Origin: an uncultured Methanosarcinales archaeon
GTDB taxonomy: Archaea; Nanobdellota; Nanobdellia; Woesearchaeales; GW2011-AR4
Length of the DNA: 64,000 nt
Assembly: GCA_964454865.1 (NCBI GenBank)
Contig: CAYVTQ010000001.1
Location: 3,554 to 67,553, forward strand
Direction: 5' to 3'
Below are positions 6,244 to 30,780 of this stretch, in pieces. How positions within the stretch are numbered: position 1 is the stretch's first letter; each line of letters opens with the position of its first letter. A program made the translations under genes and the position numbers. The notes below the pieces were generated by a model. That model did not search any database. It saw nothing but the letters and a program-made list of their open reading frames with translations, and was not told where the DNA came from.

Positions 6244-7428
6244 TTATAAATTATAATAGTCCTCAAGTATAATCTCATCAACATTCTCAGAATCCTTTGC
6301 AACATACAGCCTCCCGTTCCCGATTTCAACAATCTTTTCGGCCAGCTCCCTGCCTTTTGAATCCAGATTTATTCCAATCAGCGAGATTGTAATTCCATTA
6401 TTCCTTGCTATTGAGACTTCTTCCAAAGTTTCCTTTTCAGGATTTTTTCCCTTTGTCGGCAGCGCATCAGTAAGCAAGATAAGGTGCTTTGTTATTTTTT
6501 CAGAAGGGAAAAGCTCAATGCATTTTCTCAGGGTAGCTGCCAAATCCGTCTCTTTCGAAGGCATTATTTTGGTTATTTCGCCTATTATCCTAGTGAAATC
6601 CGATGTCGGCTCGATTGCAGTCTTGATGTCGGAGCCAAACACTATCAGCCCCACTTTGTCTTTTTCATTTATTGCCTTGTATGCCAGTGCAATGCCGGCT
6701 TTCTTGCACGACTCCACTTTTTTGCCCTTCATCGAGCCTGAAGCATCAAGCGCATAGACTATGTATGCCTGGCCCCTGCTTTGCGTTTCGTGAACCTGCA
6801 GGTCGCCCATCTCTATCCTGCCGTGCCTTCTTCTTATTGCTGTTTTTATTGAGCTCTTTAAAGCAATGTCCCTGTACCTTTCTCCTTTCTTGAATCTCCT
6901 GAATCCTTCTTTCTCGCCATAATGCGCATTTTCCTTGTGGGTTTTTTCCCCAAGAAGCCCTTTCGGCACTATCTTGTCGAGTTCCTGGAAATATAAGACA
7001 AGAGAAGCCAATTCATAGCCTTTATTGGAGATTCCATGGTCCGCTCCTACAAAGCCTTTCTCTTTTAATTCCTGCATTTTCCTGCTTATCCTTTCCCTCA
7101 GCTCTCTTTGGAACTCAGGCACTCCTGCGTTTTTCTTTATGTAATCCGGCTCGTACCCAGAAACCAGCCTTATCAAAGACTCGCCAAATATCTGCTTGGC
7201 AATTGAATAATTCCTTACCAGCTGCTCAAACATCAGGTCGGGAGTAAAGCTGCCCATTCCTTGGTTTATGGCATCGCTGATAAGCTTGCCGTCGTCTATG
7301 GTTTTTTTGTCGTTTTCCAGCACAGAATGCATGAATTTGTCTTCCAGATCCTGAAATGAAAGGCTCCCCTGCATTTCCTCTGCTTTCGAGAATTCCTTGA
7401 CTTGAACAGCGGCGTTACCCTTCACCAC
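6244..7428 (-). CDS. VWA-domain protein (ChlD-like partner of AAA+ ATPase)
   Basis: C-terminal VWA with MIDAS DASGSM; Arg-rich linker; 13-bp overlap with upstream AAA+ gene. Confidence 0.75.
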   Translation of the reverse strand: MVKGNAAVQVKEFSKAEEMQGSLSFQDLEDKFMHSVLENDKKTIDDGKLISDAINQGMGSFTPDLMFEQLVRNYSIAKQIFGESLIRLVSGYEPDYIKKNAGVPEFQRELRERISRKMQELKEKGFVGADHGISNKGYELASLVLYFQELDKIVPKGLLGEKTHKENAHYGEKEGFRRFKKGERYRDIALKSSIKTAIRRRHGRIEMGDLQVHETQSRGQAYIVYALDASGSMKGKKVESCKKAGIALAYKAINEKDKVGLIVFGSDIKTAIEPTSDFTRIIGEITKIMPSKETDLAATLRKCIELFPSEKITKHLILLTDALPTKGKNPEKETLEEVSIARNNGITISLIGINLDSKGRELAEKIVEIGNGRLYVAKDSENVDEIILEDYYNL

Positions 7429-8527
7429 CGTCGTCCCTTTCCTGCAGCTCCCTTGTTAACGCCTGCTTGAAGTCTTTTTTGAACGATCCCCTGATGAAAT
7501 CCTCTGCTGTCTGCAGATATTTTACAGAAGGCTTGAGCCTTATCCTGTGCGACAAAACAGAGGAAATCACATTCTCAATATCCTCGATTGAAACCTCTTT
7601 TCTGCCGTTCAATAATGCATTTGCCTGCGCCCGTTCATACAATCCGATAGAAGCCCTCACAGAAGGCTTTTTCTCAAGCTTGTCGCTTTCTCTCAGCAAT
7701 CTTATGAAAGAAATGCTTGCCCTTAGCAATTCATCATCAAACTCTGCCAGTTTTTTGCCTTTTTCAACAACAATGTTTTGCTCAATAGGCAGGCTTTCAG
7801 GGTGATCCATATAAACGATGTCAAACCTGTCCAATAAAACATCAGACAGCTTTTCCGTAGAGGTATCTTCTGGATTCATTGTCCCTATGAAAACAAAATC
7901 AACGCCAAAATCAACGTCATAAGAGCCGATTGTCGCTTTTTTCTCCTCAAGCACCTGCAATAAGGCATTCTGCAGCTTTTCCGGGCATCTGTTCAGCTCA
8001 TCAAAAAACAATACTCCGCCGTCTGCCTTGAAAATCTTGCCCTTGGTAAAAGCTTCCAATGACAATGGCCCGTATTTCATCGCCTTGATTGGATCAATGT
8101 CTCCCAATAGGTCTTCAACAGCGAGATCAGGGGAGCCCTGTATCCTGACAAATTTTGCATGGTTTTTGCTGTTTTTCTTATTTGGCAGAAGGCCGGCAAC
8201 ATTTTTTGCCAAAGTAGTCTTTCCAACGCCGGGAGGGCCTATAATCAGGATATTCCTGTTGCTAAGCAGGGCTGACTTTACCCCAAGTTTTGTATTCTCC
8301 TGCCCCTTTATGTCTGTAAAAGGGTCTTTGGTTTTCAATAATGCGTTTTTTAGCTCTTCTGACAGCATTTTAAATCGTGAAGTTATGGCGCTGGGTTTTA
8401 TAAACGTTCTGGTAAAAAAAGGCATTGAAAAGCCTTGCATTGCTCGAAAATCAACAGACTGCCATAATTGGATTTTCGGCACCACCTGCGGTGGAATTGA
8501 TGGCAACCTATATCTTTTCAATGCCAC
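7415..8527 (-). CDS. AAA+ ATPase, MoxR/ChlI (Mg-chelatase subunit I-like) family
   Basis: Walker A GPPGVGKT, Walker B FFDELNR, sensor region typical of ChlI/MoxR. Confidence 0.8.
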   Translation of the reverse strand: MALKRYRLPSIPPQVVPKIQLWQSVDFRAMQGFSMPFFTRTFIKPSAITSRFKMLSEELKNALLKTKDPFTDIKGQENTKLGVKSALLSNRNILIIGPPGVGKTTLAKNVAGLLPNKKNSKNHAKFVRIQGSPDLAVEDLLGDIDPIKAMKYGPLSLEAFTKGKIFKADGGVLFFDELNRCPEKLQNALLQVLEEKKATIGSYDVDFGVDFVFIGTMNPEDTSTEKLSDVLLDRFDIVYMDHPESLPIEQNIVVEKGKKLAEFDDELLRASISFIRLLRESDKLEKKPSVRASIGLYERAQANALLNGRKEVSIEDIENVISSVLSHRIRLKPSVKYLQTAEDFIRGSFKKDFKQALTRELQERDDGGEG

Positions 8528-8579: not shown

Positions 8580-9155
8580 ATGATGGCAAAAATCAAAAAT
8601 TATGCCGGAAAATCGCACTCAAATTTTGAGTATAGGGAACAGAATCAGGAAGTGTATTACGCTGTTGGCGACATAGTCAAGATTAGCAAAAATGATATCC
8701 AATTATTCAGAAGAAAGACTATGCAAAACAAGCGTTTGAGGAGCAGATTGTGCACCCATAAAGACATACATGATAATCTCCACGAGATGTTCATCATGTA
8801 CTCCAAAGCTGCTTATATAAGGCCGCATAGGCATCCTAATAAAAGCGTATCCTATCACATAGTTGAAGGCTGCGTTGACGTCATTTTATTTAATGAGGCG
8901 GGAAATGTAAAAGAAATAATCCGGATGGGGGATTACTTAACCGGCCTTACTTTTTATTTCCGCATTTCCGACCCGCACTATTATATGCCAATACCAAGAT
9001 CCGATTTTTTGGTTTTTGAGGAGATTACAAATGGGCCCTTCAACGATTCCCATACCGTATTTGCTCCATGGGCCCCTGATGATGGCGATAACTTTGCTGT
9101 TAAAAAATTTATGAATGCATTAGAAGTCAAGATTAAAAGGTGGCCCTCGAATTAA
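8580..9155 (+). CDS. Cupin-fold protein, possibly WbuC-like (glycan-locus associated)
   Basis: PHRHP...SVSYHIVEG cupin metal-binding pattern; sits at the start of the sugar gene block. Confidence 0.4.
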   Translation: MMAKIKNYAGKSHSNFEYREQNQEVYYAVGDIVKISKNDIQLFRRKTMQNKRLRSRLCTHKDIHDNLHEMFIMYSKAAYIRPHRHPNKSVSYHIVEGCVDVILFNEAGNVKEIIRMGDYLTGLTFYFRISDPHYYMPIPRSDFLVFEEITNGPFNDSHTVFAPWAPDDGDNFAVKKFMNALEVKIKRWPSN

Positions 9156-9184
9156 GCTCTTTCAATAATCTTAGGAGTATAGGA

Positions 9185-10465
9185 ATGGAATCAAATTCTT
9201 TTCAGCGCAATCAATGCCGGGCGTGCAAAAGCAGAAATCTCGAATTAGTTTTGCCTCTTGCACCCATACCTATTGCTGATGCATATGTTTCCAAGGAATG
9301 CCTAAATGAAGCTCAAAATACTTACCCTTTGGAAGTTTTTTTGTGCAAAAATTGCGGCCTTGTGCAACTGCTTGAAACCATAGACCCGGAAATTTTATAC
9401 AGTAAATTCCTCTATGAAACCTCCACCTCACTAGGCCTTGCAGCCCATTTTCAAAAATATGCCCATGAAGTATTTAAAAAAATCGGGCCTCAAAAAGACA
9501 GCCTTATTGTAGATATAGGGAGCAATGACGGAACCCTGCTAAAAGCGTTTAAGGGCGAAGGGGCCACTAATGTCTTAGGAATAGACCCTGCTGAAGATAT
9601 CTCGAAAAAAGCGACAAAAAACGGAATAAAAACCGTGCCAAAATTTTTTAATATGGGGCTTGCCAATGAAATCACAAAAGAATACGGATTGGCTGGAATA
9701 GTCACTTCAAACAATACCCTTGCCAATATTGATAATCTGGCGGAATTTATTGGTGCAATCAAGCAGCTTATTGACGACCATGGGGTGTTCATCTTTGAAA
9801 CTGTCTATCTGGTTGACCTGTTGACGAATGCCGTTTTTGACAACATCTATCATGAGCATTTAAATTATTTCTCTGTCGGAGCCCTTAAAAAATTATTTCA
9901 GTTGCACAACTTGGAATTGGCGGATGTCGAGAGAATAGAAACCAAAGGAGGGTCTATACGCTGCTATGTCCAGCATAAACAGGGGCCCCTGAAGACTTCA
10001 TCTTCAGTAAATGAACTGATCAGCATGGAAAACGGCCTGAAAATAACTTCTGCGGAAATCTATACCAAATTATCTAAAAAACTAGAGCGCCATAAGCATG
10101 AATTGAGACACTTTCTCACTGATTTAAGGAGCAAGGGCAAGATAATCGCCGGCTACTGTGCGTCGCAAAGTGTTACGACTTTTCTTTATTATTTCGGCAT
10201 AGGGGAGTTTATAAAATTTATAGCGGACGATAACTCCATAAAGCACGGCACATTCAGCCCCGGCTTGCATATCCCGGTTTTGCCGCCGGATGAAATCTAC
10301 AGGCAAAAACCTGATTTTATAATAATATTGGCATGGAGATATTCCGACCCAATCATTAAAAAGCATCAGCTTTATCTTAATGGAAATGGGAGCTTTATTG
10401 TGCCATTTCCTGCTATAGAACTTTTTGATAAAAGTGGCATGAAAGAAGCGGCTAAACATCAATAA
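9185..10465 (+). CDS. NDP-hexose C-methyltransferase (TylCIII/EvaC-like, Zn-ribbon + SAM MT + C-terminal domain)
   Basis: N-terminal CRAC...CKNCG zinc ribbon, DIGSNDG SAM motif, long C-terminal domain; start placed at M16 to avoid overlap with upstream gene. Confidence 0.7.
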   Translation: MESNSFQRNQCRACKSRNLELVLPLAPIPIADAYVSKECLNEAQNTYPLEVFLCKNCGLVQLLETIDPEILYSKFLYETSTSLGLAAHFQKYAHEVFKKIGPQKDSLIVDIGSNDGTLLKAFKGEGATNVLGIDPAEDISKKATKNGIKTVPKFFNMGLANEITKEYGLAGIVTSNNTLANIDNLAEFIGAIKQLIDDHGVFIFETVYLVDLLTNAVFDNIYHEHLNYFSVGALKKLFQLHNLELADVERIETKGGSIRCYVQHKQGPLKTSSSVNELISMENGLKITSAEIYTKLSKKLERHKHELRHFLTDLRSKGKIIAGYCASQSVTTFLYYFGIGEFIKFIADDNSIKHGTFSPGLHIPVLPPDEIYRQKPDFIIILAWRYSDPIIKKHQLYLNGNGSFIVPFPAIELFDKSGMKEAAKHQ

Positions 10466-10475
10466 GGCATCTAAA

Positions 10476-11522
10476 ATGAGAGAACCGGACAATTTCAAAA
10501 ATATAATTTCAGCATTGTGCGATAAGGCAAATATCTCGGGAAACTACAAACTGGAGACTATCAAGGGCGGAAGGAACAACCAGACTTTCTGCGTTTCCTG
10601 CGATAATGGCACCAAGGCACTGCTTAAATACTATTTCAACAGCAGATTTGACAAAAGAAATCGCCTGGCATCCGAACACGCTTTTTTGAAATATCTGCGC
10701 GAATTGGGCTATACCCGCATCCCAAGAGTATTGGCAGTCGACACCGGCAACAATTTAGGGTTATATGAGTATATAGAAGGGAAAAAACTGAGCGCGTCAG
10801 AAATTGGCAAATCTGAAGTGGACTCTGCGATTGATTTCTTTTGCCGCATAAACAACGGAAAATATAGCCTCAAAAACAGCTTTTATCCGGCATCAGAAGC
10901 ATGTTTTAATCTCAATGACCATATAAGAACCGTTGAGACTAGGATTTCTAAACTATCTTCTATAGCCGGAACATCCGGAACAGACCGCATGGCAAGGGAA
11001 TTTATAAAAAATAAGCTAATTGTTTTGTGGGATGAGGTCAGGCAGCATGTATTAGAAAGCACTGCAAGCCTGAACATGGATTTGGATAAAGACATGCCTG
11101 CCAATGAAAAATGCCTGTCCCCTTCCGATTTCGGATTCCACAATGCCCTGAAAAATAGCTCCGGCGAAATTTATTTTTTCGATTTTGAATATGCCGGAAT
11201 AGACGATCCATCCAGAATGATGTGCGATTTCTTCTGCCAGCCCGAAATACCTGTGCCTTTCAAATTTTTCCACTATTTTATCCGGAAGATTTGCAGCGCC
11301 ATACCTTACACTAAGGAAGTAAGTGATAGGGCCGCCATATTATTTCCAGTTTATAAACTGAAATGGTGCTGCATACTGCTGAATGAATTTTTGCAAGATA
11401 GCATGGCGCGCAGGAAATTTGCCATTTCTGAAGGGTCTCCTGACCTCAAGCTGCAGCAGCTCAATAAAGCTCTGAAATACATGGAAAATTTTGAATTGAT
11501 CAAGAACGAGATTATGGCGTAG
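10476..11522 (+). CDS. Phosphotransferase-family kinase (APH/choline-kinase fold)
   Basis: Brenner-type SDFGFHNAL (DxxxxN) catalytic loop and DFEYAG Mg-binding motif. Confidence 0.6.
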   Translation: MREPDNFKNIISALCDKANISGNYKLETIKGGRNNQTFCVSCDNGTKALLKYYFNSRFDKRNRLASEHAFLKYLRELGYTRIPRVLAVDTGNNLGLYEYIEGKKLSASEIGKSEVDSAIDFFCRINNGKYSLKNSFYPASEACFNLNDHIRTVETRISKLSSIAGTSGTDRMAREFIKNKLIVLWDEVRQHVLESTASLNMDLDKDMPANEKCLSPSDFGFHNALKNSSGEIYFFDFEYAGIDDPSRMMCDFFCQPEIPVPFKFFHYFIRKICSAIPYTKEVSDRAAILFPVYKLKWCCILLNEFLQDSMARRKFAISEGSPDLKLQQLNKALKYMENFELIKNEIMA

Positions 11523-11526
11523 GTGG

Positions 11527-12192
11527 ATGATGGGCGGACAACTTAGCATTATATCAGCATTGCATAAAAAAACCCAGCGTGATTATATTAAAAGGGTAAA
11601 CAACTCCAAAATTGATTGCATGAAAGTCGCAAGAATGTACGGCAAGGACTATTGGGACGGCGACAGAAAGTTCGGCTATGGAGGGTACAAATATGATGGA
11701 AGATGGTCTGTTGTGGCAAAAGAGCTGATAAAGATTTATAATCTCCCTGCCACAGCAAAAATCCTGGATGTAGGCTGCGGAAAAGGATTTCTGCTTTATG
11801 AGTTCAAAAAATTGCTGCCAAAATGCACAATTGCCGGGTTTGACATATCGGAATATGCCGTCAAGAATGCAAAAGAAGAGGTCAAGAGCGATTTGCACGT
11901 TCATCCGGCCCAAGATTCATATGGCTATACCGACAAAGAATTTGACCTTGTAGTATCTCTTACGACTCTCCACAACCTGAAAATTTATGATTTGCATTCT
12001 GCTTTAAAGGAGATAGAAAGGGTAGGGAAGCATAAATATATTGTTGTTGAGAGCTATAGGGATGAAAAGGAGCTATTTAATCTCGAATGTTGGGCACTCA
12101 CTGCCCAGTCTTTTTTCAGCATCGAGGAATGGGAATGGATTTTTGGGCATTTTGGCTATTCCGGCGATTACGAATTTATATTCTTCGAATAG
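11527..12192 (+). CDS. Class I SAM-dependent methyltransferase
   Basis: ILDVGCGKGFLL motif I, acidic motif II (GFDIS). Confidence 0.65.
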   Translation: MMGGQLSIISALHKKTQRDYIKRVNNSKIDCMKVARMYGKDYWDGDRKFGYGGYKYDGRWSVVAKELIKIYNLPATAKILDVGCGKGFLLYEFKKLLPKCTIAGFDISEYAVKNAKEEVKSDLHVHPAQDSYGYTDKEFDLVVSLTTLHNLKIYDLHSALKEIERVGKHKYIVVESYRDEKELFNLECWALTAQSFFSIEEWEWIFGHFGYSGDYEFIFFE

Positions 12193-12255
12193 CAATTACT
12201 TATCAAATCTGCATGCATCAAAGCTTTTATAAATCATACAAAATTACTCTGTTCT

Positions 12256-13302
12256 ATGATTCATAGCCTTAAAAATTATATCGAAGGCATAAAAACTGCC
12301 TACAATACCGGTCTAATTGAAAGCTTAATTAAGCAATTCAAAACGAAAAAGTTGCTGGTAATAGGCGACACAATAATTGATGAATACTACTTTACCTCAA
12401 TCAAGGGAACTGCCATCAAGGATCCCATAATCTCTGCGGAATATAAATACCATGAAACTTATCCCGGCGGAATATTGGCAATTTATAGCCATCTAAGCGA
12501 TTTCGCGGATAAGATTAATTTAGTCACATTATTGGGAGAATACAGCCCTAACCTGGACTTTATTAAAAAAAATATCCATAAAAATACCAATTTTAAACAT
12601 TTTATAAAGCCGGATTCCCACACAATTGTAAAACGAAGGTACATAGACGCTTACAGGAATAACAAGCTTTTCAAAATAGAGTATATGAATGACATGCCAA
12701 TATCCGAAAAGCTGTCCGGGGAAATTCTGGATTATTTAAGAAATGAAATTAAAAAATATGATATAGTGATTGCAGGGGATTTCGGCCACGGCTTTCTCAA
12801 TAAGCAGATAAGGGAATGTTTGGATGAAGAATCCCCTTACCTGTCAATAAATGTGCAGACAAACAGCGCCAACAGGGGATACAATTATGTAAATCTTTAC
12901 AAAAAACCTGATTTTTTCACTATCAATGAGGAGGAATTGAGGCTGACTATGATGAAGAGATTTGACGACACTAACGAGGTTATAAGGGAATTGCACAACA
13001 CTTTTAAGTATGGTAAATTTCTTGTCACACGCGGTAAAGAGGGATGCACTTTTTTTAATGATGGAAATATTGTCGAGGCTCCGGCATTGACAGAGAATGT
13101 AATTGACACTATTGGATCCGGAGATGCAGTATTTTCAATTGCAAGCTTATTTGTGCATAGCCATCCGGATGATAATCTGGTCCCGTTTATCGCAAACTGT
13201 GCGGGGGCTATAAAATCCAATTACATGGGCAACAAAGAAAGAATCACAGCAGAAAAATTATTAAGATTTATCAAAGAGCTGTATGAAAATGAACTGGAAT
13301 AG
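12256..13302 (+). CDS. PfkB-family sugar kinase, RfaE domain-I-like (heptose-7-phosphate kinase-like)
   Basis: LLVIGDTIIDEYY N-terminus and GSGDA anion hole; no fused adenylyltransferase domain. Confidence 0.6.
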   Translation: MIHSLKNYIEGIKTAYNTGLIESLIKQFKTKKLLVIGDTIIDEYYFTSIKGTAIKDPIISAEYKYHETYPGGILAIYSHLSDFADKINLVTLLGEYSPNLDFIKKNIHKNTNFKHFIKPDSHTIVKRRYIDAYRNNKLFKIEYMNDMPISEKLSGEILDYLRNEIKKYDIVIAGDFGHGFLNKQIRECLDEESPYLSINVQTNSANRGYNYVNLYKKPDFFTINEEELRLTMMKRFDDTNEVIRELHNTFKYGKFLVTRGKEGCTFFNDGNIVEAPALTENVIDTIGSGDAVFSIASLFVHSHPDDNLVPFIANCAGAIKSNYMGNKERITAEKLLRFIKELYENELE

Positions 13303-13846
13303 CTATAAAGAATCAATAATAGGCGCCTTGGAGATTTTCAGATTTGATGAAGGGATACTTGATTTGATCAGGAATTCCGTCAGCAAAAACCAGAGGATTT
13401 TCATAGGAGGCAATGGCGGGAGCGCTGCATTATCATTGCATTACGCAGCAGATTTATCAAAAGGGGCCAATTCAAACTGGGAAAAAAACGCCAAAAGGCT
13501 TAAGGCTGTTCCCCTAACCGGCAGTATAGGGTATATCACTGCCATATCCAACGATCTTAATTATGATGAGATATTCAAGCAGCAATTGATAAATCTGGCA
13601 TCCAAAAATGATATACTGATTCTGATTTCCTCTTCCGGGAACAGCCCAAATATAGTAAAAGCTGCGGAATATGCAAAAAAAGCCGGACTGATTGTTGTAG
13701 GCATCACAGGATTTGATGGCGGAAAGCTGAAGGGGCTATCTGACTACTCAGCTCATCTGGACTTTGATTCATATGAAGTTTGCGAAGATGTCCACGGAAT
13801 ATTCGGCCATTTCCTTTCGTGCTATTTGAGAAGCAGCCCGGACTAG
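13283..13846 (+). CDS. gmhA: Phosphoheptose isomerase (SIS domain, GmhA-like)
   Basis: GGNGGSAALSLHYAADL, ISSSGNSPN and GFDGGK motifs match GmhA. Confidence 0.75.
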   Translation: MKMNWNSYKESIIGALEIFRFDEGILDLIRNSVSKNQRIFIGGNGGSAALSLHYAADLSKGANSNWEKNAKRLKAVPLTGSIGYITAISNDLNYDEIFKQQLINLASKNDILILISSSGNSPNIVKAAEYAKKAGLIVVGITGFDGGKLKGLSDYSAHLDFDSYEVCEDVHGIFGHFLSCYLRSSPD

Positions 13847-14445
13847 AGATTTTCCATATCTTCTATTATCTGGTGCCAAGACCTGACTATTCTGAATTTG
13901 CCATTTTGTATTTCTCCGCTCGGATCAAACAGCATTCTTTTAACTGACGTGGGGAATTTACTGCCGTTTAAGAACTCCGGCAAGTCATCAATAAAATGCG
14001 TGCATTTTTGAATTTTAATCCTTTCAATTTTCTTATCGCCTGTCAGTTCAAAAAATATATTCTCTTCCTTTAATCCCATCACCCCATCATAAAATCTGTT
14101 TCTCTTCAACCACTGGCGGGCGTATTTGTGCAGATCATACTTTGGCCCCATATAAGGGTTTAATGTCCTATGGCTGATTATATATGCCTGCAATCCTTTC
14201 TCCCTGCAGATTTCGAAAAAATCCCTTACTCCCTCAAATGGCTTTGCATTGAATATTCCGGGGCCGTAAATATATCCCTGCAGCTCAATCCATTCATTTT
14301 CCCTGCACGCATCCCTAAGATAGTCTCTCACGCTGTTTTTAGACATAGATAAATTTTTTGGTATGATTCCCTTATCCAGAGCAGTGTTGTAGAACAGATT
14401 ATCATAACATACAATTGTATTGTCAAAGTCTACTCCTATAATCAT
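13843..14445 (-). CDS. HAD-superfamily hydrolase (phosphatase)
   Basis: N-terminal VDFDNT (DxD) HAD motif I. Confidence 0.55.
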   Translation of the reverse strand: MIIGVDFDNTIVCYDNLFYNTALDKGIIPKNLSMSKNSVRDYLRDACRENEWIELQGYIYGPGIFNAKPFEGVRDFFEICREKGLQAYIISHRTLNPYMGPKYDLHKYARQWLKRNRFYDGVMGLKEENIFFELTGDKKIERIKIQKCTHFIDDLPEFLNGSKFPTSVKRMLFDPSGEIQNGKFRIVRSWHQIIEDMENL

Positions 14446-14455
14446 TTTATGAAAT

Positions 14456-15496
14456 TCAACCCATATCGATCAAGGGCCTGACAATCTTGCCAGATTCCAT
14501 ATCACCCAATGCATCATTAATTTCATTAAGCTTGTAGATATTTGACGTAAACGGCTCCAAGTTTATTTCGTGCGAGGCAATAAATTTCAGATACTTCAAA
14601 AAATCAGAGTCGGGATTGCTGTCCCCTCCCCATGTTCCCAGTATGCTCTTGCCCATATTAAACTCTTGGGGGTTAATATTCAAAATTTTGCCATGGGGGG
14701 CATTTCCAACTATCACAACCTTTCCCCCCTGTTTCCTTACGCTACTCACAGCCTGCAGCATTGTTTCAGGCATTCCGCATGATTCTATTGCAAAATCCAC
14801 CCCATTTTTGCAAACTTCTCTTATTTTATCTGGAGAAAGATCGTTGGAGTTATCTATCAGGTGGGTAGCCCCGTACTTCTCCGCTGTTTTTAATTTATTT
14901 TTATTAATATCGACTGCAAATATCGGGCGGCACTGGCTAATTCTTGCTCCTGCAATAGCAAATAGGCCTATGCCTCCTGTGCCAAACACGGCAATGCTCT
15001 CCCCTTTTTTCGGCTTTGCAACATTAAGGACAGCCCCCATTCCAGTAGGGAATGCACAGCCTAGTAACGCAATCTCTTTCATTGAAATATCCCAGCTCTC
15101 CGGCACGGCGGTCAAGCGATTTTCTGAAATAACGGACTGCCTTGAAAATGTGGTGATAGCTCCGGCATTTACTCTTTTCCCGCCTAATTCATAGGCTGTT
15201 CCCGGCACGTCCATTCCGGAGCCTTTTATCCACGACATTATGACCTTATCACCGGGCTTTACCTTCGTTACTTTAGGGCCGGCTTCCCTGACTATTCCCG
15301 AGCCTTCATGCCCCAGGCAATGCGGCAAATACTTGTCCTCTCCTCTGTGGCCATATTTTTCTAAAATCTGAGTATGGCAAACTCCGCTATATTTTATATC
15401 CACCAAAACCTGGCCATCCTTTAATTCAGGGATTTTCAGGCTTACCAATTTCAGCGGATTTCCCAATTCTTCCAGTATTGCAGCTTCAGTCAGCAT
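14456..15496 (-). CDS. Zinc-dependent alcohol dehydrogenase (MDR family)
   Basis: GVCHTQ and GHEGSG Zn-ADH motifs, GxGxxG Rossmann (GTGGIG). Confidence 0.8.
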   Translation of the reverse strand: MLTEAAILEELGNPLKLVSLKIPELKDGQVLVDIKYSGVCHTQILEKYGHRGEDKYLPHCLGHEGSGIVREAGPKVTKVKPGDKVIMSWIKGSGMDVPGTAYELGGKRVNAGAITTFSRQSVISENRLTAVPESWDISMKEIALLGCAFPTGMGAVLNVAKPKKGESIAVFGTGGIGLFAIAGARISQCRPIFAVDINKNKLKTAEKYGATHLIDNSNDLSPDKIREVCKNGVDFAIESCGMPETMLQAVSSVRKQGGKVVIVGNAPHGKILNINPQEFNMGKSILGTWGGDSNPDSDFLKYLKFIASHEINLEPFTSNIYKLNEINDALGDMESGKIVRPLIDMG

Positions 15497-16412
15497 TATT
15501 AAGATTCTCCATTATTTTTTTTGATATTTGATAAGGGGCAAGACCCATAAATTCCCTTGCGTAAGATTGGCTTCCAACCCTGTATAAGAACCTATCTTTT
15601 GTCCCGAATCTCAATAATCTGGATTTTTTGAAATTGTCACATGACCATTCAGCCACGCTTGATCCCAGCCCTCCAAGAAGGCTGTGCTCTTCAATTGTCG
15701 CAATCAGGCCGAATTCATTGAAAACATCGCTCAAAACTTCAGTATCCAAGGGCTTCAATGTAAACATATTTACCACTTGCGCAGATATGCCTTTTTCACC
15801 CAAAATTTTGGCAGCCTCAACAGAAGTGGACAGCATATTGCCTATACTTAAAATACAAACATCTTTTCCTTTTTGGATAATATTCCCCTTGCCGATTTTT
15901 GAATTTGGCACTTCCTTGTAAACAAGAGGGTCATTTTTTTTCCCTAGCCTCAGATAAACCGGCCCGTCATGATTTAGGGCCAGCCTTATAGCGGACCTTA
16001 CTTCATAGGCATCTCCGGGGCAAATGACAGACATATTAGGAAGCGCCCTCATTATTGCCAGATCCTCGCATGAATGGTGGGTTGCACCCAATGGGGCATA
16101 TTCAAACCCCGCCCCTACTGCCACTATAACCACTGGAAAATTGTTGTAGCATATATCCACCCTTATTTGTTCATAACATCTTGTCGTTATGAACGGCGCT
16201 ATGGTGTAACCAATAGGCCTCAGCCCGCAAGAGGCTATTCCGGCAGCCATTCCAATTAAATTAGCTTCTGCCACTCCGCAATTAAAAAACCTGTTGGGGA
16301 ACTTTTCTTTGAACTTATCAAAGAGCTTGTTGCCTATGTCGCCCGGCATCAAAACAACCTTGTCATTCTTTTCCGCTAATTTTGTCACTTCATCTGCAAA
16401 GGCATTCCTCAT
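15486..16412 (-). CDS. Transketolase, C-terminal (pyrimidine-binding) subunit of split enzyme
   Basis: 308 aa transketolase Pyr/C-terminal domains; 4-bp overlap with N-terminal subunit gene. Confidence 0.8.
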   Translation of the reverse strand: MRNAFADEVTKLAEKNDKVVLMPGDIGNKLFDKFKEKFPNRFFNCGVAEANLIGMAAGIASCGLRPIGYTIAPFITTRCYEQIRVDICYNNFPVVIVAVGAGFEYAPLGATHHSCEDLAIMRALPNMSVICPGDAYEVRSAIRLALNHDGPVYLRLGKKNDPLVYKEVPNSKIGKGNIIQKGKDVCILSIGNMLSTSVEAAKILGEKGISAQVVNMFTLKPLDTEVLSDVFNEFGLIATIEEHSLLGGLGSSVAEWSCDNFKKSRLLRFGTKDRFLYRVGSQSYAREFMGLAPYQISKKIMENLNNAD

Positions 16413-17284
16413 ATTAATCCCAGCTCCTTTTTAGCCTTAATCAATTCCTGTTCATTTGGAACTTTGTAATGCCAATTGTTATCGTCCTCCATAAATGACA
16501 CTCCTTTGCCTTTTGTTGTGTGGGCAATAACAGCCACTGGCTTTCCGGAGCCGTCAGGAATGTTATTGAGTATCTTAAATATCTCCTGGAGATTATGCCC
16601 GTCAATTTCATAAACGCTCCATCCAAAAGATCTCCACTTATCAGCCAGCGGCTCTATTGCTAAAATTTCAGTACTTCTTCCAGTTGCCTGCCACTTATTA
16701 AAATCAACAATCACCGCAACGTTTTCAAGCTTGTGCATTGGAGCAAACATTGCAGCTTCCCAAACAGACCCCTCATTACATTCGCCATCGCTTATAAGTG
16801 CAAATACTCTATAGTCTCTTTGCTGTATGCCTCCTCCAAGAGAAATCCCGATGCCGAATGGCAGTCCATGGCCAAGGGATCCTGTTATAGCTTCAACACC
16901 CGGAATTCCCCGGTCCGGGTGCTCTGCAAAAGCTGTATCATTTTTGCCGAATGTCTCAAGCAAACTTTCTTCAAAAAATCCCTTATAAGCAAGAGTCGCG
17001 TACAATGCCATTGCAGCATGCCCTTTACTAAGGATAAACCTATCCCTGCCAGGCTCTTTTGGGTCCTTGGGGTTTATTTTAAGTATCTTCCAGTAAATCA
17101 CTGCCAAAATATCTACACAAGACAGGGCTGATGCCAGATGAGCAACATCCGCCTTGCTGGCCATTTCCAGGACCTTGCCGCGAATTTTACTTGCGATTTT
17201 ACTTAATTCCAAAAAATCCGGATTTTTGTCGTTTAGCTTCATTTGTTTGCTGGGTTTATACCCCTCCCCTTGGGGCGACCTCAT
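16409..17284 (-). CDS. Transketolase, N-terminal (TPP-binding) subunit of split enzyme
   Basis: GHAAMALYA and GSLGHGL TPP-binding motifs; 291 aa. Confidence 0.8.
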   Translation of the reverse strand: MRSPQGEGYKPSKQMKLNDKNPDFLELSKIASKIRGKVLEMASKADVAHLASALSCVDILAVIYWKILKINPKDPKEPGRDRFILSKGHAAMALYATLAYKGFFEESLLETFGKNDTAFAEHPDRGIPGVEAITGSLGHGLPFGIGISLGGGIQQRDYRVFALISDGECNEGSVWEAAMFAPMHKLENVAVIVDFNKWQATGRSTEILAIEPLADKWRSFGWSVYEIDGHNLQEIFKILNNIPDGSGKPVAVIAHTTKGKGVSFMEDDNNWHYKVPNEQELIKAKKELGLI

Positions 17285-17291
17285 TTTTATT

Positions 17292-18419
17292 TTACTTTTG
17301 GAATGAATTTATCCCTTCAATAACAAGATTAATTTGGCTATCTTTTAGTTCCGGGTAAAGAGGCAGGCTTAATATCCTTTTTGCCTGCTTTTCTGCCACT
17401 GGAAAATCTCCTTTTTTGAATCCGAGACTCAGCGATTGCAGCTGCAAATGGATAGGCACAGGGTAATGGACTTTAGTTTCTATGCCCTTGCCAAGCAGAT
17501 ATTTTTGCAATTCATCCCTTTTTTCAGACTCTATGATGAAATTATGATAAAACGGCTCTTCATACTCTTTGTCATGGGGTATTTTTGCAATACCTTTTGC
17601 TTCTTTCAGCCCTTTTCGGTATAAAGAAACTATCTCCTTAATTCTTGCCCCGGTATCCTCCAAATGCCTTAAGCGCACATTGAGGATTGCGGCTTGTATG
17701 GAATCCAAGCGTGAATTATATCCCCACATGATTGTCTCGTCCCTGTTTTTAAGCCCGTGATTTCTGAGATGGAGTATCTTTTCATATAACTCCTTATTAT
17801 TAGTCGTTATAACTCCGCCATCCCCGCAGCAATTAAGGTTCTTTAGAGGATGCAGGCTAAAACAGCCTGCAATTCCGAATGATCCCACCCTTGCCCCCTT
17901 ATATTCTGCCCCTACAGCCTGTGCAGTATCTTCTATCACATGCAGCCCGTTCTTTTTTGCCATTTCCAATATTGGAGACATATTTGCAGGCCTTCCAGTC
18001 AAATGCACAGGTATTATTGCTCTTGTGTTTTTTGTAATTGCTTTTTCTATAAGATCAGGATTTATGTTGTAGTCATCGCCGACATCTGCAAAAGCCGGCA
18101 CCGCCCCGGCAGCTATTATGGCACCGGCAGTCGCTATAAATGAATTTGGCGCCGTTATTACTTCATCTCCCTGACCTATCCCCAAAGCCTTCATGCAGAG
18201 AAATAAGGCGTCAGTCCCATTGCCCACGCCTATTGCATAGCTGCAGCCGCAATATTTTGCAAATTCCCTTTCAAACTCCTTCACTTCCGACCCCAGTATA
18301 TAATCTCCTGATTCCAAGACGGAATTTATCCTAGACACTATTTCTGCTTTTGCCGACTCAAACTGGGCTGATAAATCCACAAACTTCACTTTTACATTAC
18401 TCGCGCATTGCTCACTCAT
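17292..18419 (-). CDS. DegT/DnrJ/EryC1/StrS family sugar aminotransferase (PLP)
   Basis: Fold-type I AT; conserved sugar-AT blocks. Confidence 0.85.
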   Translation of the reverse strand: MSEQCASNVKVKFVDLSAQFESAKAEIVSRINSVLESGDYILGSEVKEFEREFAKYCGCSYAIGVGNGTDALFLCMKALGIGQGDEVITAPNSFIATAGAIIAAGAVPAFADVGDDYNINPDLIEKAITKNTRAIIPVHLTGRPANMSPILEMAKKNGLHVIEDTAQAVGAEYKGARVGSFGIAGCFSLHPLKNLNCCGDGGVITTNNKELYEKILHLRNHGLKNRDETIMWGYNSRLDSIQAAILNVRLRHLEDTGARIKEIVSLYRKGLKEAKGIAKIPHDKEYEEPFYHNFIIESEKRDELQKYLLGKGIETKVHYPVPIHLQLQSLSLGFKKGDFPVAEKQAKRILSLPLYPELKDSQINLVIEGINSFQK

Positions 18420-19560
18420 AAAACTCCCTTATTTTTTTAACCGCATATTCCTGCTGTTCTTTTGTAATAAACTCATGAACCGGCAATGAGATCACTGATT
18501 TGCACACTTCTTCACAAAACGGAAAATCTCCTTCCTTGTACCTCCAACCTTTTGCTGCTGGCTGCAGATGCATTGGAATGGGATAGTGAATTTTGGCGTC
18601 TATCCCATTTTCTATAAGGTATTTTTGCAATTCGTCCCTCCTTTTAGCCATTATTACATAGATATGGAATACATGCTTCGCATTCTGGCTTCTTTTCGGG
18701 ATTCTTATCTGGGGAACCTTTGAAAGCTCTTCATCAAAAAATTTTGCATTCCTGATTCTTGACTCAGTTATGTGTTCAATCTTTTTCAGAAGATGGCTGG
18801 CTACAACTGCCTGTATTGAATCCAGTCTTGAATTATAAGCCCATACAAAGCACTCATTTCTGTTTACAAGCCCGTGATTTCTAAGCAAAACCAGCCTGTC
18901 GTGCAAATCTTTCGAATTGGTTGTTATCACTCCCCCGTCTCCCCATACATTTAAGTTCTTAAGGGGATGGAGGCTGAAGCATCCCATGTTTCCAAAACTG
19001 CCGGGCGATTTTTCCCCGATTTTGGAATTTATTGCGTGGCATGCATCTTCAACTACATATAAATTATGCTTACTTGCGATTGACATAATCTTTTCCATAC
19101 TGCACGGCATGCCGGACCAGTGAACTGGAAGTATTGCCTTGGTTCTTTTTGTGAGCACTCCTTCTATAAGATCAGGATCAATATTCAGATCCTCCCCAAT
19201 ATCAGCAAATACCGGAGTTGCCCCGGCAGTGACAATAGCGCCCACTGTCGCAAAAAAAGTATAAGGGGTTGTAACAACCTCATCTCCCTGCCCTACTCCC
19301 AGCGCCTTCAAGCTAAGGAATAATGCGCCTGTCCCGCTGCCAACCCCTATCGCATACTTAGTGCCAACAATTTCTGCAAACTCTTTTTCAAATAAATCCA
19401 CGCTCTTGCCAAGCGTGAAATCGCCATCAATAACGACCTTTTCCATCTCTTTAAAAATCTCCTTATAGTCTAAAAACTGCTGCTGCAGATAATTGTGGTT
19501 GATGCCTCTCTTTGCAGTTTCCTCATACTGTTGCGGAAGATAATTATGATCTATTGCCAT
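18412..19560 (-). CDS. DegT/DnrJ/EryC1/StrS family sugar aminotransferase, tandem paralogue
   Basis: About 60% identical over core to 17292..18419; 8-bp overlap with it. Confidence 0.85.
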   Translation of the reverse strand: MAIDHNYLPQQYEETAKRGINHNYLQQQFLDYKEIFKEMEKVVIDGDFTLGKSVDLFEKEFAEIVGTKYAIGVGSGTGALFLSLKALGVGQGDEVVTTPYTFFATVGAIVTAGATPVFADIGEDLNIDPDLIEGVLTKRTKAILPVHWSGMPCSMEKIMSIASKHNLYVVEDACHAINSKIGEKSPGSFGNMGCFSLHPLKNLNVWGDGGVITTNSKDLHDRLVLLRNHGLVNRNECFVWAYNSRLDSIQAVVASHLLKKIEHITESRIRNAKFFDEELSKVPQIRIPKRSQNAKHVFHIYVIMAKRRDELQKYLIENGIDAKIHYPIPMHLQPAAKGWRYKEGDFPFCEEVCKSVISLPVHEFITKEQQEYAVKKIREFYE

Positions 19561-19659
19561 CTTCTAAGCGGTACCTCCTTCATTTTTTAAACTTTGTTCC
19601 TCTTGGAAATCCTGTGTTATATGGAGTTTGTTAAACTGGGATTTAATGTTTCCAATGTG

Positions 19660-20661
19660 TTATTTTTTATGAATATATTCAAGGGGCATACTCTGAATTT
19701 CGCTCCAGTTCCCTTCAATCCAGCTTATAGTTTCTTTGATGCCTTCTTTAATGGATATTTTGGCGTCCCATCCAAGCTCCCCCCTTATTTTTGAGCTATT
19801 CAGGCTGTACGCATAATCCTGGCCGAAGTTTTCTTTTACCAGATTTACAGAGCTCTTAAAATCGCAGTTCATAATATCACAAATCATCTTGACAATGCTT
19901 CTTATTTTGAACTCCTGGTCCTGCGGGGCAATATGATACACCTCGCCCTTCTCCCCATTTTCTATTGCTTTAAGCATCGCGTCAGCAACATCCCTAACAT
20001 GGACAAACGACCTTATGGATTTTCCTTCCCCATGCAATTCAACTTTTTTGTTTAATTTCAGGTAAATTATTGTTCTTGGAATAATGCGATAGAGCTGCTG
20101 ATGCATCCCATAGACATTTGACGAGCGGGTAAAAACAACAGGAAAATCATATTTTTTAAAAAGAGCCGACAAAAAAAGATCGCCAGCTAATTTTGAGGCG
20201 GCATATGGCGTGCTCGGCTTAAAGTTAGAATTTTCAGGCACATTTTTTCCGGCACTTTCTCCGTATACTTCCGGAGTCGATACGCTCACATACCTCTTCA
20301 AATACTCCCTGTCTTTTAATAAATTAGAAAACTTCACCGTGGACACGCAATTTGTCATGAACCACTGCTCGGGCCATTCCCAGCTGCGCCTCACTTCGCC
20401 CTGAGCAGCATAATTAACAATAACCTCCGGCCCGAATTCATCAAGCAATTCCATTATCCTGCCAAGATCATTGTTTAAATCGAGCTGAAAGAATCTGAAT
20501 TTTTTAGGCCTTTCTTTTCTGTATAAATACGGCAGGAATATTGGCGGATATTCAGCAGACCTGCTTATGCCAATAACTTCAGCAGCGGTGTTTTCAAGTA
20601 TGTAATCTATAAAACTGCTTCCGGAAAATGAATTGCTTCCTATGACCGCTACTTTTTTCAT
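19660..20661 (-). CDS. NDP-sugar 4,6-dehydratase/epimerase (extended SDR)
   Basis: N-terminal Rossmann VAVIGSNSFSGSS, YxxxK (YAASK) catalytic pair. Confidence 0.75.
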   Translation of the reverse strand: MKKVAVIGSNSFSGSSFIDYILENTAAEVIGISRSAEYPPIFLPYLYRKERPKKFRFFQLDLNNDLGRIMELLDEFGPEVIVNYAAQGEVRRSWEWPEQWFMTNCVSTVKFSNLLKDREYLKRYVSVSTPEVYGESAGKNVPENSNFKPSTPYAASKLAGDLFLSALFKKYDFPVVFTRSSNVYGMHQQLYRIIPRTIIYLKLNKKVELHGEGKSIRSFVHVRDVADAMLKAIENGEKGEVYHIAPQDQEFKIRSIVKMICDIMNCDFKSSVNLVKENFGQDYAYSLNSSKIRGELGWDAKISIKEGIKETISWIEGNWSEIQSMPLEYIHKK

Positions 20662-21656
20662 TTCAGCTTCAAGTCCTTCATTCTTTTTATATTATGGTAT
20701 AACGGATTGTTTAGCCCGTCATCAATCAATCCTTCTTTAAAGGCAAAGATTATTGACTCAATTGCTTCCTTTAAATCGTATTTGCATTGAAATCCCAGAA
20801 CCTTCCCCATCTTATCAGTATTGACATGGTAAGATCTTGGATCATTTGTCGGCACCGTTTCAAAATCTACTGAATCTTCTCCCACAACCTCTTTAACCAG
20901 CTCTGCTAATCTTTTTATTGTAATATTCTCATAAGCCACGTTAAAAGCCTGCCTGCCAATCTTTCTCCCATCAACTTCCAGCAATAGCTCATAAAACCTC
21001 ACGATGTCCCTGATATTGACTGCGGGCCTCATCTGGCTGCCGCCAAAAATTTTTATTTTTTTGTTTATCAATGCCTGGATTGTCAGCAAATTAACGCTCA
21101 AGTCAAACCTCATTCTTGGAGAGTACCCGCATATTGTAGCAGGCCTTACAAAAACAAATTCCGCCCCTCCTATTTCAGCATTGAGCAGCAGCTTTTCACA
21201 TTCAATCTTGTATTTTGAATAGTCTGTAATTGGCTCGGCTTCCACCTCTTCAGTAACATCAATATCTATAGGCTTCACGCCATACTGGCTTGTTGAGCTT
21301 GCTACAATCAGCCTTTTTACACTATTTTTCTTCACAGAGGATATAACATTGCTAAATGCATCATAATTGATGGACTTGCCGAGATGGGGATTTAAGTCAA
21401 AACTCGGGTCATTAGAAATGCACGCCAAATGAATAAAAGCGTCACTGCCTTTAGAGGCCTCTGCCAATCTCTCTTTATCCCTTATGTCACCTTCTACTTC
21501 TGTAAGGTTCGGATGTGGCTTGAAGACCTTTCCGTAGATATAGAGGTCATAGACCGTCACATTGTGCCCTTTTTCCAATAGTTTCGGCACTAGCGAACTG
21601 CCTACATAACCTGCCCCACCCGTTATAAAAACATTTTTGAGATTTATTTTAATCAC
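20658..21656 (-). CDS. NAD-dependent epimerase/dehydratase (UDP-sugar 4-epimerase-like)
   Basis: TGGAGYVGS Rossmann, YSKYK catalytic motif. Confidence 0.75.
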   Translation of the reverse strand: MIKINLKNVFITGGAGYVGSSLVPKLLEKGHNVTVYDLYIYGKVFKPHPNLTEVEGDIRDKERLAEASKGSDAFIHLACISNDPSFDLNPHLGKSINYDAFSNVISSVKKNSVKRLIVASSTSQYGVKPIDIDVTEEVEAEPITDYSKYKIECEKLLLNAEIGGAEFVFVRPATICGYSPRMRFDLSVNLLTIQALINKKIKIFGGSQMRPAVNIRDIVRFYELLLEVDGRKIGRQAFNVAYENITIKRLAELVKEVVGEDSVDFETVPTNDPRSYHVNTDKMGKVLGFQCKYDLKEAIESIIFAFKEGLIDDGLNNPLYHNIKRMKDLKLK

Positions 21657-28232: not shown

Positions 28233-29178
28233 ACCATTTTGCAGTAATGCCAATTCCCTTTTCCAGGCTTGTTCCCGGTTTGTATCCCAATTTTTTAATC
28301 TTTGCAATGTCGGGGCACCGCCTCAGCACGCTCCCTTTCTTCAGGCTTCCGGGCTCGACAATCACATCTTTCCCGAAATATTTGCCGACTTCCTTGGCAA
28401 CATCTTCTATTGAGGCTTCATCCATTGTCCCTATATTATAGGTCTCCAAATGCTTTCCTTTTTTCAGTACCAGCATAAGTCCGTCAATAAAATCATCAAT
28501 GTATACAAAAGCCCTCATTTCCCTTCCAGTGCCCTCAATCGGAAATTTTACCGGATTCTTATTATTGCTCCTGCATATTTCCTTCATGCGCAGAACAAAC
28601 TGGGGGATTGCGTGCTCCCATCCCATATTGGGGCCGTATACATTATGAGGCCTGAAGATTATCACCCTGTCAAAATATTTTCTGCCGTAGTTTATCGCCA
28701 TGATCTCGCTGATTATCTTGCCGCCGGCATAGGAATATCTGGGATTGAGAGGATCAGGTATGGACAGAGGCACTGTTTCATCTGTAGGGATTGCATCCGG
28801 CTTCTGATACACTTCAGAGCTTGAAGCCAGCAGCAGCTCTTTGACTTTGTTCCTGATGCAGCCGTCAATGACATTTATAATTCCCTTTACGCCGACGTCC
28901 AAAACCAATTCCGGCATTTTATAAAAAAATTCCGTCCCGTTGATAAAAGCCAGATGAAAAACACCGTCAATATCCTTGCAGGCGGCATTCACAGCATTTG
29001 CGTCCCTTATGTCACCCTCCACAATCTCTATTTTACTTCCTATACCTCCTATTCGATCGAATGATCCCCTGGATGCATTATCCATGACCCTGACCTTATA
29101 CCCTTCCGCTATCAGGCGCCTGACAAGAGCGCTTCCGATAAATCCTGCCCCGCCTGTAACAAGATATTTTTTTGCCAT
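28198..29178 (-). CDS. NAD-dependent epimerase/dehydratase (extended SDR)
   Basis: VTGGAGFIGSAL Rossmann, YAGGK catalytic motif. Confidence 0.8.
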   Translation of the reverse strand: MAKKYLVTGGAGFIGSALVRRLIAEGYKVRVMDNASRGSFDRIGGIGSKIEIVEGDIRDANAVNAACKDIDGVFHLAFINGTEFFYKMPELVLDVGVKGIINVIDGCIRNKVKELLLASSSEVYQKPDAIPTDETVPLSIPDPLNPRYSYAGGKIISEIMAINYGRKYFDRVIIFRPHNVYGPNMGWEHAIPQFVLRMKEICRSNNKNPVKFPIEGTGREMRAFVYIDDFIDGLMLVLKKGKHLETYNIGTMDEASIEDVAKEVGKYFGKDVIVEPGSLKKGSVLRRCPDIAKIKKLGYKPGTSLEKGIGITAKWYDENASKKPTG

Positions 29179-30778: not shown

Positions 30779-30780
30779 TT

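Follow-up and report, generated by a model that had tools for sequence, protein, structure and literature searches.

Two genes for putative sugar C-methyltransferases, C-MT1 and C-MT2, lie in the 64,000-nucleotide (nt) stretch of archaeal DNA analysed here (contig CAYVTQ010000001.1, positions 3,554 to 67,553; hereafter the window), and they raise the question of what such enzymes do in a glycan locus and which sugars they make. An earlier note on this DNA had described the pair as paralogous enzymes acting on nucleoside diphosphate (NDP)-sugars, in a locus with five small S-adenosylmethionine (SAM) methyltransferases. Our reading, to which we give a probability of roughly 0.7, is that C-MT1 and C-MT2 are functional SAM-dependent C-methyltransferases of separate subfamilies, each placed in its own conserved, horizontally shared sugar cassette within the AglB glycosylation island of a Woesearchaeota archaeon. 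Both would take an NDP-4-keto sugar, draw a proton off the carbon beside the ketone, and place the SAM methyl group on that carbon to give a C-methyl-branched sugar. On the evidence of these genes, the surface glycans of this archaeon probably contain branched sugars.

Two full-length sugar C-methyltransferases

The two genes are as follows.

9185..10465, plus strand: C-MT1, predicted NDP-4-keto-sugar C-methyltransferase of subfamily 1 (426 amino acids [aa]; PF08421, PF13489, and PF08484)
26961..28232, minus strand: C-MT2, predicted NDP-4-keto-sugar C-methyltransferase of subfamily 2 (423 aa; the same three Pfam domains)

In identical metagenome contigs, C-MT1 was independently called from 9185 (426 aa) and C-MT2 from 28229 (422 aa, P0121). 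Three Pfam models span the full length of both proteins, namely, the zinc-binding domain PF08421 (E values of 1.3e-19 for C-MT1 and 2.9e-12 for C-MT2), the class I methyltransferase domain PF13489, and the C-terminal domain PF08484, whose whole profile is covered (1.4e-46 and 9.4e-39). Among Protein Data Bank (PDB) sequences, they align end to end with the solved 3-C-methyltransferases MtmC, TcaB9, and KijD1 (5e-78 to 3e-51), the best match being MtmC (5e-78 for C-MT1 and 4e-63 for C-MT2). Both have the CxxC...CxxC pattern, and the SAM motifs read VDIGSNDG and IDIGSNDG. Gene calls, Pfam, and PDB alignments thus bear out the two open reading frames of the earlier note, with their Cys4 zinc ribbon, DIGSNDG site, and long C-terminal domain. 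The note had also named UbiE/COQ5-type enzymes as the identity that would speak against a sugar C-methyltransferase; this is ruled out by the Pfam architecture of PF08421, class I methyltransferase, and PF08484, and weak matches of that kind occurred only among the small methyltransferases. NCBIfam gave no assignment for C-MT1 or C-MT2.

The active sites were compared using MtmC and TcaB9 sequences rebuilt from PDB alignments and aligned with 237 homologues (117 C-MT1-type and 120 C-MT2-type). According to Bruender and Holden in 2012, Tyr222, Glu224, and His225 of TcaB9 reportedly have catalytic roles; in the TcaB9 literature, His181 and Tyr76 reportedly position the sugar. The PDB mutant chain 4e2w, with Asn at the His181 position, confirms the numbering offset. 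Invariant in C-MT1, C-MT2, and all 117 and 120 homologues are the four zinc-binding Cys residues, the D/E-x-G-x-N-D-G motif, and the equivalents of Tyr222, Glu224, and His225, with the catalytic Y-x-E-H motif reading YHEH in both proteins. C-MT2 keeps His181 and Tyr76 as well, i.e., all TcaB9 active-site residues. Judged by sequence, C-MT1 and C-MT2 are full-length sugar C-methyltransferases of the TylCIII/TcaB9/MtmC type with intact active sites.

The pair is less closely related than had been thought. The earlier note put the mutual identity at about 45%, and we obtained 33% by BLASTP and 33.7% in the MAFFT alignment. This is about the same as the identity to actinomycete MtmC in the same alignment (34.8% for C-MT1 and 32.2% for C-MT2), so a recent duplication was rejected; the two belong to separate subfamilies and are paralogous only in the broad sense. 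The closest database relatives of C-MT1 are 54% identical to it. For C-MT2, more than 120 cluster representatives in archaea and bacteria are 70 to 77% identical, the named sources including Woesearchaeota, Methanoperedens, and Chloroflexota. The whole superfamily of sugar C-methyltransferases came to 3,082 clusters at 50% identity with E values of ≤1e-30, and several deposited members from Woesearchaeota and Methanoperedens carry the generic name "class I SAM-dependent methyltransferase."

A third, distant C-MT type with the same three Pfam domains was seen in two other loci (L167, 5479..6699; L170, 7032..8234), at 22 to 26% identity to C-MT1, C-MT2, MtmC, and TcaB9. In both it stands beside a C-MT1-type gene, and loci with two C-MTs therefore recur in other uncultivated organisms.

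C-MT2 belongs to a conserved five-gene cassette

Upstream of C-MT2, its cassette (26961..32777) and the gene that follows contain these features.

28198..29178, minus strand: extended short-chain dehydrogenase/reductase (SDR), UXS/ArnA-like, putative supplier of the 4-keto sugar for C-MT2 (synteny and UXS1 motifs)
29241..29984, plus strand: 247-aa class I methyltransferase inside the cassette (Pfam; orthologues of 60 to 64% identity at the same position in L087 and L091)
29981..30778, minus strand: GT2 glycosyltransferase (Pfam and NCBIfam)
30781..31542, minus strand: RmlD-like 4-ketoreductase (Pfam and NCBIfam)
31560..32777, minus strand: NDP-sugar 6-dehydrogenase (Pfam and NCBIfam)
32882..34348, plus strand: PMT_2-family GT-C membrane glycosyltransferase with about 11 hydrophobic segments (PF13231 and hydropathy)

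The SDR gene overlaps the start of C-MT2 by about 32 to 35 nt, as had been noted before. We examined 82 C-MT2 loci, 67 of which had enough upstream DNA and 25 of which had at least 4.8 kb of it. In 64 of the 67, the gene immediately preceding the C-MT2 orthologue, on the same strand, encodes an SDR orthologue, mostly of 51 to 71% identity. The usual order is NDP-sugar 6-dehydrogenase, 4-ketoreductase or aminotransferase, GT2, SDR, and C-MT. Orthologues of the GT2, RmlD-like, and dehydrogenase genes (47 to 77% identity) keep this order in L087, L088, L091, L093 to L095, L097, L106, and L116, and a 6-dehydrogenase gene is found upstream in 20 of the 25 longer loci. In variant A of the cassette (the window, L087, L088, L091, and others), an RmlD-like reductase gene lies between those for the GT2 and the dehydrogenase; in variant B, a DegT aminotransferase gene takes that position, joined in L084 and L086 by a hexapeptide acyltransferase gene. 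Ketoreductase and aminotransferase exclude each other at this one position, and since reduction and transamination are the standard fates of a C-4 ketone, the alternation fits a 4-keto sugar pathway, as would be expected if either enzyme acted on the ketone that remains once C-MT2 has added its methyl group.

The SDR shares the motifs SSSEVY, PRxxYxxGK, FRPxNxYGP, and RRCPDI (KRKPDI in UXS1) with human UXS1, a UDP-glucuronate decarboxylase (UDP-xylose synthase), and the PDB matches of the 6-dehydrogenase include CalS8. The best PDB matches of the GT2 are dolichyl-phosphate-mannose synthase (DPMS), ArnC, and GtrB. The PMT_2 protein had no match in the PDB search; in L091, an orthologue of its gene (54% identity) is part of the cassette, and in L084, L086, and L098 there are PMT_2 genes beside it.

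We propose that the 6-dehydrogenase would produce an NDP-hexuronate, which the SDR would oxidize at C-4 and probably decarboxylate to an NDP-4-keto-pentose. C-MT2 would then methylate the neighbouring carbon, with C-3 expected by analogy with all solved relatives, and the RmlD-like enzyme would reduce C-4. The dedicated GT2 would load the sugar onto dolichyl phosphate, from which the PMT_2 GT-C enzyme would use it, or else transfer it straight to the lipid-linked glycan. This order of steps resembles the Arn pathway of Gram-negative bacteria (Ugd, ArnA, ArnB, ArnC, and ArnT), in which a 6-dehydrogenase, a decarboxylating SDR yielding a 4-keto-pentose, a GT2, and a PMT_2 GT-C enzyme also act in turn; the GT2 matches ArnC, and the fate of C-4 is Arn-like, namely, transamination in variant B and reduction in variant A. 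The calicheamicin aminopentose route (CalS8/CalS9) follows the same logic. Unlike Arn, the cassette has an added C-methylation step and no formyltransferase or deformylase, its GT2 is without the membrane helices of ArnC, PMT_2 is inconsistently present, and decarboxylation by the SDR is only putative. The window version has an RmlD-like reductase where Arn has ArnB, and variant B has DegT plus the hexapeptide acyltransferase. It is plausible that the C-MT2 cassette encodes an Arn-like pathway with a C-methylation step, for which the likeliest product here would be a C-methyl pentose. More specifically, and only tentatively, we suggest that the five genes for 6-dehydrogenase, 4-ketoreductase or aminotransferase, GT2, UXS-like SDR, and C-MT2 may form an undescribed archaeal and bacterial pathway to C-methyl pentoses or 4-amino-pentoses that in this archaeon would cap N-glycans.

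The C-MT1 gene set is split into two blocks

The genes associated with C-MT1 (8580..21656) are as follows.

8580..9155, plus strand: WbuC-family cupin (DUF6016), probable keto-sugar epimerase/isomerase (TIGR04366, 113 bits with a cutoff of 42; PF19480 on the identical metagenome gene)
10476..11522, plus strand: APH-type kinase (Pfam)
11527..12192, plus strand: 221-aa class I methyltransferase (Pfam)
12256..13846, plus strand: PfkB heptose-7-phosphate-kinase-like gene and GmhA-like SIS isomerase gene of the C-MT1 operon (NCBIfam rfaE domain I and gmhA, below curated cutoffs)
13843..17284, minus strand: conserved 200-aa protein, Zn-dependent alcohol dehydrogenase (Zn-ADH), and split transketolase in C and N halves (Pfam and NCBIfam)
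17292..21656, minus strand: two DegT-type sugar aminotransferases and two extended SDRs (Pfam and NCBIfam)

The earlier note had each C-MT adjacent to an SDR keto-sugar enzyme. This is true of C-MT2 only: C-MT1 has the cupin gene upstream and the kinase gene downstream, and the SDR genes at 19660..21656 are 9 kb off on the other strand. C-MT1 seems to be without an SDR partner because its set is split in the window into two divergent blocks. In L168, the counterparts of the DegT/SDR block adjoin the C-MT1 orthologue without a break and are 68 to 80% identical to the window genes; in L169, the identity is 67 to 73%. In L168, a single run consists of cupin, adh_short reductase, C-MT, SDR, SDR, DegT, DegT, the N and C halves of transketolase, Zn-ADH, and the 200-aa protein, with 52 to 80% identity to the genes at 8580..21656 of the window; just upstream are genes for a PfkB kinase, a HAD phosphatase, and cytidylyltransferase-like proteins. 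Related sets occur in L124, L167, and L169 to L172, often with the APH-type kinase and the 221-aa methyltransferase. The cupin adjoins C-MT1-type genes in L167, L168, and L170, and C-MT1-type proteins are found naturally fused to a cupin (P0039), an SDR (P0011), or an RmlD-like reductase (P0050). We assign the SDRs at 19660..21656, one of which (19660..20661) is RmlB-like with STPEVYG...YAASK, as the predicted keto-sugar enzymes accompanying C-MT1.

In this cassette, the RmlB-like SDR would produce a 4-keto-6-deoxy sugar. Turning this into a C-methyl amino sugar would fall to C-MT1 together with the WbuC cupin, both aminotransferases, and the rest of the enzymes. Since heptose-type kinase and isomerase genes come next in the C-MT1 operon, the starting sugar might be derived from the heptose of these adjacent PfkB/GmhA genes.

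Some of these genes form a recurrent module of their own, made up of the APH-type kinase, the 221-aa methyltransferase, the split transketolase, Zn-ADH, and the 200-aa protein, which is without a Pfam match. It lies at 10476..17284 of the window and at 11847..17061 of L124, is also present in L167, L168, L170, and L171, and travels with either C-MT type. Identities to the window genes are 33 to 42% for the kinase and 55 to 71% for the methyltransferase in L124, L167, L170, and L171, and 44 to 77% for the genes of 13843..17284 in these loci and L168. Its role may be to form a two-carbon branch or to provide a precursor.

Both cassettes lie in an AglB island of a Woesearchaeota archaeon

Between about 8.5 and 52.3 kb of the window, almost all genes have Pfam or NCBIfam matches to sugar activation, modification, or transfer; this island takes up about 45 kb of the 64 kb. 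It includes the following genes outside the two cassettes.

34673..37705, plus strand: AglB/STT3 oligosaccharyltransferase (PF02516, E value of 1e-42)
37725..38303, minus strand: 192-aa class I methyltransferase (Pfam; orthologues of 67 to 75% identity in the Woesearchaeota AglB loci L004, L012, and L016)
40692..41351, minus strand: 219-aa class I methyltransferase (Pfam)
46359..47084, minus strand: 241-aa class I methyltransferase (Pfam)

Tyw1, AglB/STT3, DUF460, topoisomerase VI A and B, and CTP-dependent riboflavin kinase are archaeal marker genes of the window. Proteins named Candidatus Woesearchaeota share 87% identity with topoisomerase VI-B of the window, and the 156 AglB relatives found, the best at about 50% identity, come from Woesearchaeota/Nanoarchaeia metagenome-assembled genomes (MAGs). 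The marker genes, the topoisomerase VI-B identity, and the AglB relatives together show the window to be archaeal, and on its gene content we assign the host to Woesearchaeota (DPANN). AglB neighbourhoods were compared for 80 retained relatives, all from Woesearchaeota/Nanoarchaeia-type MAG loci, over 10 kb around AglB. In the window, 1.9 kb separate the C-MT2 cassette from AglB; in L098, an AglB homologue begins 26 nt downstream of the cassette. The addition of a sugar from a dolichyl-phosphate carrier has an archaeal precedent, a GT2 plus a PMT-like GT-C enzyme encoded beside AglB, in AglD, AglR, and AglS of Haloferax volcanii, where the last N-glycan sugar is added extracellularly from dolichyl-phosphate-mannose. 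Unlike the proposal made here, the sugar there is plain mannose, and a flippase candidate was not identified in the window.

Weighing the alternatives

Several observations weigh against parts of our reading. In C-MT1, the His181 and Tyr76 of TcaB9 are replaced by Asn and Phe, so that its sugar binding would be unlike that of the solved enzymes, and the adh_short reductase accompanying C-MT1-type genes elsewhere is absent from the window. For the C-MT2 cassette, the PDB scores of the SDR, 104 bits with human UXS1 (the best named match) versus 98 bits with RmlB-type dTDP-glucose 4,6-dehydratases, are so nearly equal that they do not establish decarboxylation. The 6-dehydrogenase is closest to UDP-ManNAc dehydrogenases and could serve a separate pathway. 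The 265-aa GT2 had no hydrophobic segment or membrane helix in the hydropathy scan, and phmmer detected PMT_2-like genes in only 4 of the 32 long cassette loci, which weakens the Arn-like lipid-carrier step. The idea that Woesearchaeota AglB neighbourhoods regularly include a C-MT was rejected, as 0 of the 80 loci had one within 10 kb of AglB; the link to N-glycans therefore rests on proximity in the window and in L098.

The changes at positions 76 and 181 of C-MT1 might mean that one or both C-MT genes are inactive relics or act on something other than a sugar, which we consider very improbable, as neither reading frame is broken or truncated, the catalytic and cofactor residues are all conserved, and so, strongly, are the neighbourhoods. 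Asn181 is moreover the usual residue of a large and conserved subfamily, occurring in 103 of 117 C-MT1-type sequences (Phe76 in 13 of 117), and is thus a subfamily trait and not decay. The similar SDR scores would also suit a classical hexose route, in which the SDR is a Gmd/LegB/RmlB-type 4,6-dehydratase, the product of C-MT2 is a 6-deoxy-3-C-methyl-hexose resembling virenose or evalose, and the 6-dehydrogenase serves another sugar. The best NCBIfam matches of the SDR, LegB with 148 bits and RmlB with 138 bits (both below cutoffs), agree with this, the characterised family members all act on 6-deoxy sugars, and the Ser-Glu pair of the SDR occurs in GDP-mannose 4,6-dehydratase too. The route is a serious rival but the less likely one, given the dehydrogenase co-conserved in the operon (in the 20 of 25 loci mentioned), the RRCPDI and FRPxNxYGP motifs in common with UXS1, and a cassette with neither a nucleotidyltransferase nor a second SDR.

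The position of the methyl group and the destination of the sugars allow two further readings. C-5-methylating enzymes such as NovU and CloU belong to the same family, and both carbons beside the ketone are chemically accessible; on a 4-keto-pentose, a methyl group on C-5 would give an unbranched 6-deoxy-4-keto-hexose. The chance of this is slim, because the three best-matching solved relatives are all C-3 enzymes, 6-deoxyhexoses can be reached more simply by way of a dehydratase and the window has an RmlB-like gene, and a NovW-type partner was not identified beside C-MT2. As to destination, the cassettes could serve a diffusible glycosylated secondary metabolite, or the decoration of lipids or polysaccharides, in place of N-glycans. 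The same cassettes occur in bacteria without AglB, such as Chloroflexota (P0191), the absence of C-MTs from the 80 related AglB loci fits, and PMT_2 enzymes such as ArnT modify lipids. Pfam and NCBIfam scans, however, found no polyketide synthase, nonribosomal peptide synthetase, or aglycone genes in the window, both cassettes are inside the AglB island, the L098 cassette abuts AglB, and secondary metabolism is scant in the small genomes of Woesearchaeota, all of which makes such a destination improbable. The reading of two functional sugar C-methyltransferases, each in its own cassette of the AglB island, remains the one we prefer.

Relation to known systems

The closest characterised enzymes, MtmC (mithramycin), TcaB9 (tetronitrose), and KijD1 (kijanose), are TDP-4-keto-sugar 3-C-methyltransferases of actinomycetes, with TylCIII, EryBIII, and EvaC as relatives. 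C-MT1 and C-MT2 share with them the three-domain architecture, zinc site, SAM motif, and Tyr/Glu/His catalytic residues. They differ in having only 28 to 35% identity, an archaeal host, and a cell-surface glycosylation island in place of an antibiotic cluster; C-MT1 also differs by its Asn181 and Phe76, and C-MT2 by its partners, a UXS-like SDR and a 6-dehydrogenase. The window contains no 2,3-dehydratase gene, which argues that the substrate, unlike that of the actinomycete systems, is not a 2-deoxy sugar. The nearest published case is CBU_0691 of Coxiella burnetii, a TylCIII homologue with the predicted function of making virenose (6-deoxy-3-C-methyl-gulose) for the O-antigen of lipopolysaccharide (PMC3539893). 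It likewise places a C-methyltransferase of this family in a surface glycan and not in an antibiotic. Unlike the window genes, it is bacterial, and its proposed substrate is a 4-keto-6-deoxyhexose from a 4,6-dehydratase.

C-MT1 and C-MT2 add members to a known family, in a biological setting that is new for it, and nothing in them is categorically new. The enzyme family itself is well understood, and we infer all of the chemistry proposed here, including substrates, methylation position, and attachment to N-glycans. What our analysis adds is that each C-MT belongs to a conserved, widely shared cassette, and that the C-MT2 cassette may define an undescribed C-methyl pentose route. Although this cassette is conserved at about 75% identity between archaea and bacteria and is common in metagenomes, its annotation is generic; it is a well-defined candidate for a new sugar-nucleotide pathway. 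In targeted literature searches, we found no description of the C-MT1 or C-MT2 cassettes.

Archaeal N-glycans are known for unusual sugars, and Woesearchaeota, with their small genomes, presumably rely on contact with other cells. For such archaea, it is notable that about 45 kb of a 64-kb window would serve elaborately methylated, aminated, and carbamoylated sugars. We know of nothing reported on the glycans of Woesearchaeota. The earlier note had regarded C-branched, heavily methylated sugars as rare and was not aware of any in archaeal glycans. The second point agrees with a 2024 review of archaeal N-glycan sugars, which covers iduronic acid, aldulose, diamino-uronic acids, heptose, sulfo-sugars, and inositol and has no C-branched sugar; rarity does not extend to the gene family, with its roughly 3,000 clusters. 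If our reading is right, the five-gene module and the C-MT1 cassette would provide the first C-branched sugars in archaeal glycoproteins.

Other genes of the island and window

The five class I methyltransferase genes singled out by the earlier note, at 11527, 29241, 37725, 40692, and 46359, were all confirmed by Pfam, and none of the small methyltransferases had an NCBIfam match above a curated cutoff. The 192-aa enzyme encoded just downstream of AglB is a lineage-conserved neighbour of AglB, unlike the C-MTs. A GT2 with C-terminal membrane helices is encoded at 41348..42238; it has homologues near AglB in 69 of the 80 related loci and is probably the dolichyl-phosphate sugar synthase of the lineage.

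A complete GDP-D-glycero-alpha-D-manno-heptose-type set lies at 42643..46355, with genes for a nucleotidyltransferase, a GmhB-like HAD phosphatase, an HddA-like GHMP kinase, and a GmhA-like SIS isomerase, all with NCBIfam scores below equivalog cutoffs. It is directly followed by a short transaldolase gene, the product of which could supply sedoheptulose 7-phosphate. The PfkB and SIS genes at 12256..13846 are thus the second heptose-type pair of the window. SIS, PfkB, and HAD homologues occur within 10 kb of AglB in 15 to 21 of the 80 loci, and heptose may be common in the glycans of the Woesearchaeota lineage.

Further modifications are suggested by three other genes. A protein with an FkbH domain (HAD-IIIC plus GNAT; TIGR01686, 208 bits, above the cutoff) and then a membrane-anchored SGNH/AlgX-like acylhydrolase are encoded at 24742..26968, a pair that suggests glyceryl or acyl transfer and extracellular O-acylation of the glycan. 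The gene for a NodU-type O-carbamoyltransferase (22041..23801), which suggests carbamoylated sugars, adjoins the SDR/DegT block and has a 62% orthologue near AglB in the Woesearchaeota locus L047. At the edge of the island (48908..52312) are genes for a flavin amine-oxidase-like protein, an aminoglycoside 3-N-acetyltransferase [AAC(3)] family protein (PF02522, E value of 6e-51), and a UDP-GlcNAc 2-epimerase; one would not expect an AAC(3)-type enzyme among glycan genes.

Outside the island, a 783-aa open reading frame at 57781..60132 had no Pfam family at an E value of ≤0.01, and a MoxR-type AAA+ ATPase and a VWA-domain protein are encoded as a pair at 6244..8527, just upstream of the glycan genes. 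Many contigs titled "uncultured Methanosarcinales archaeon" (L004, L007, L009, L010, and others) have an AglB that groups with those of Woesearchaeota, and the label looks wrong; one such record, OZ246410.1, is titled a chromosome and is only 774 kb long.

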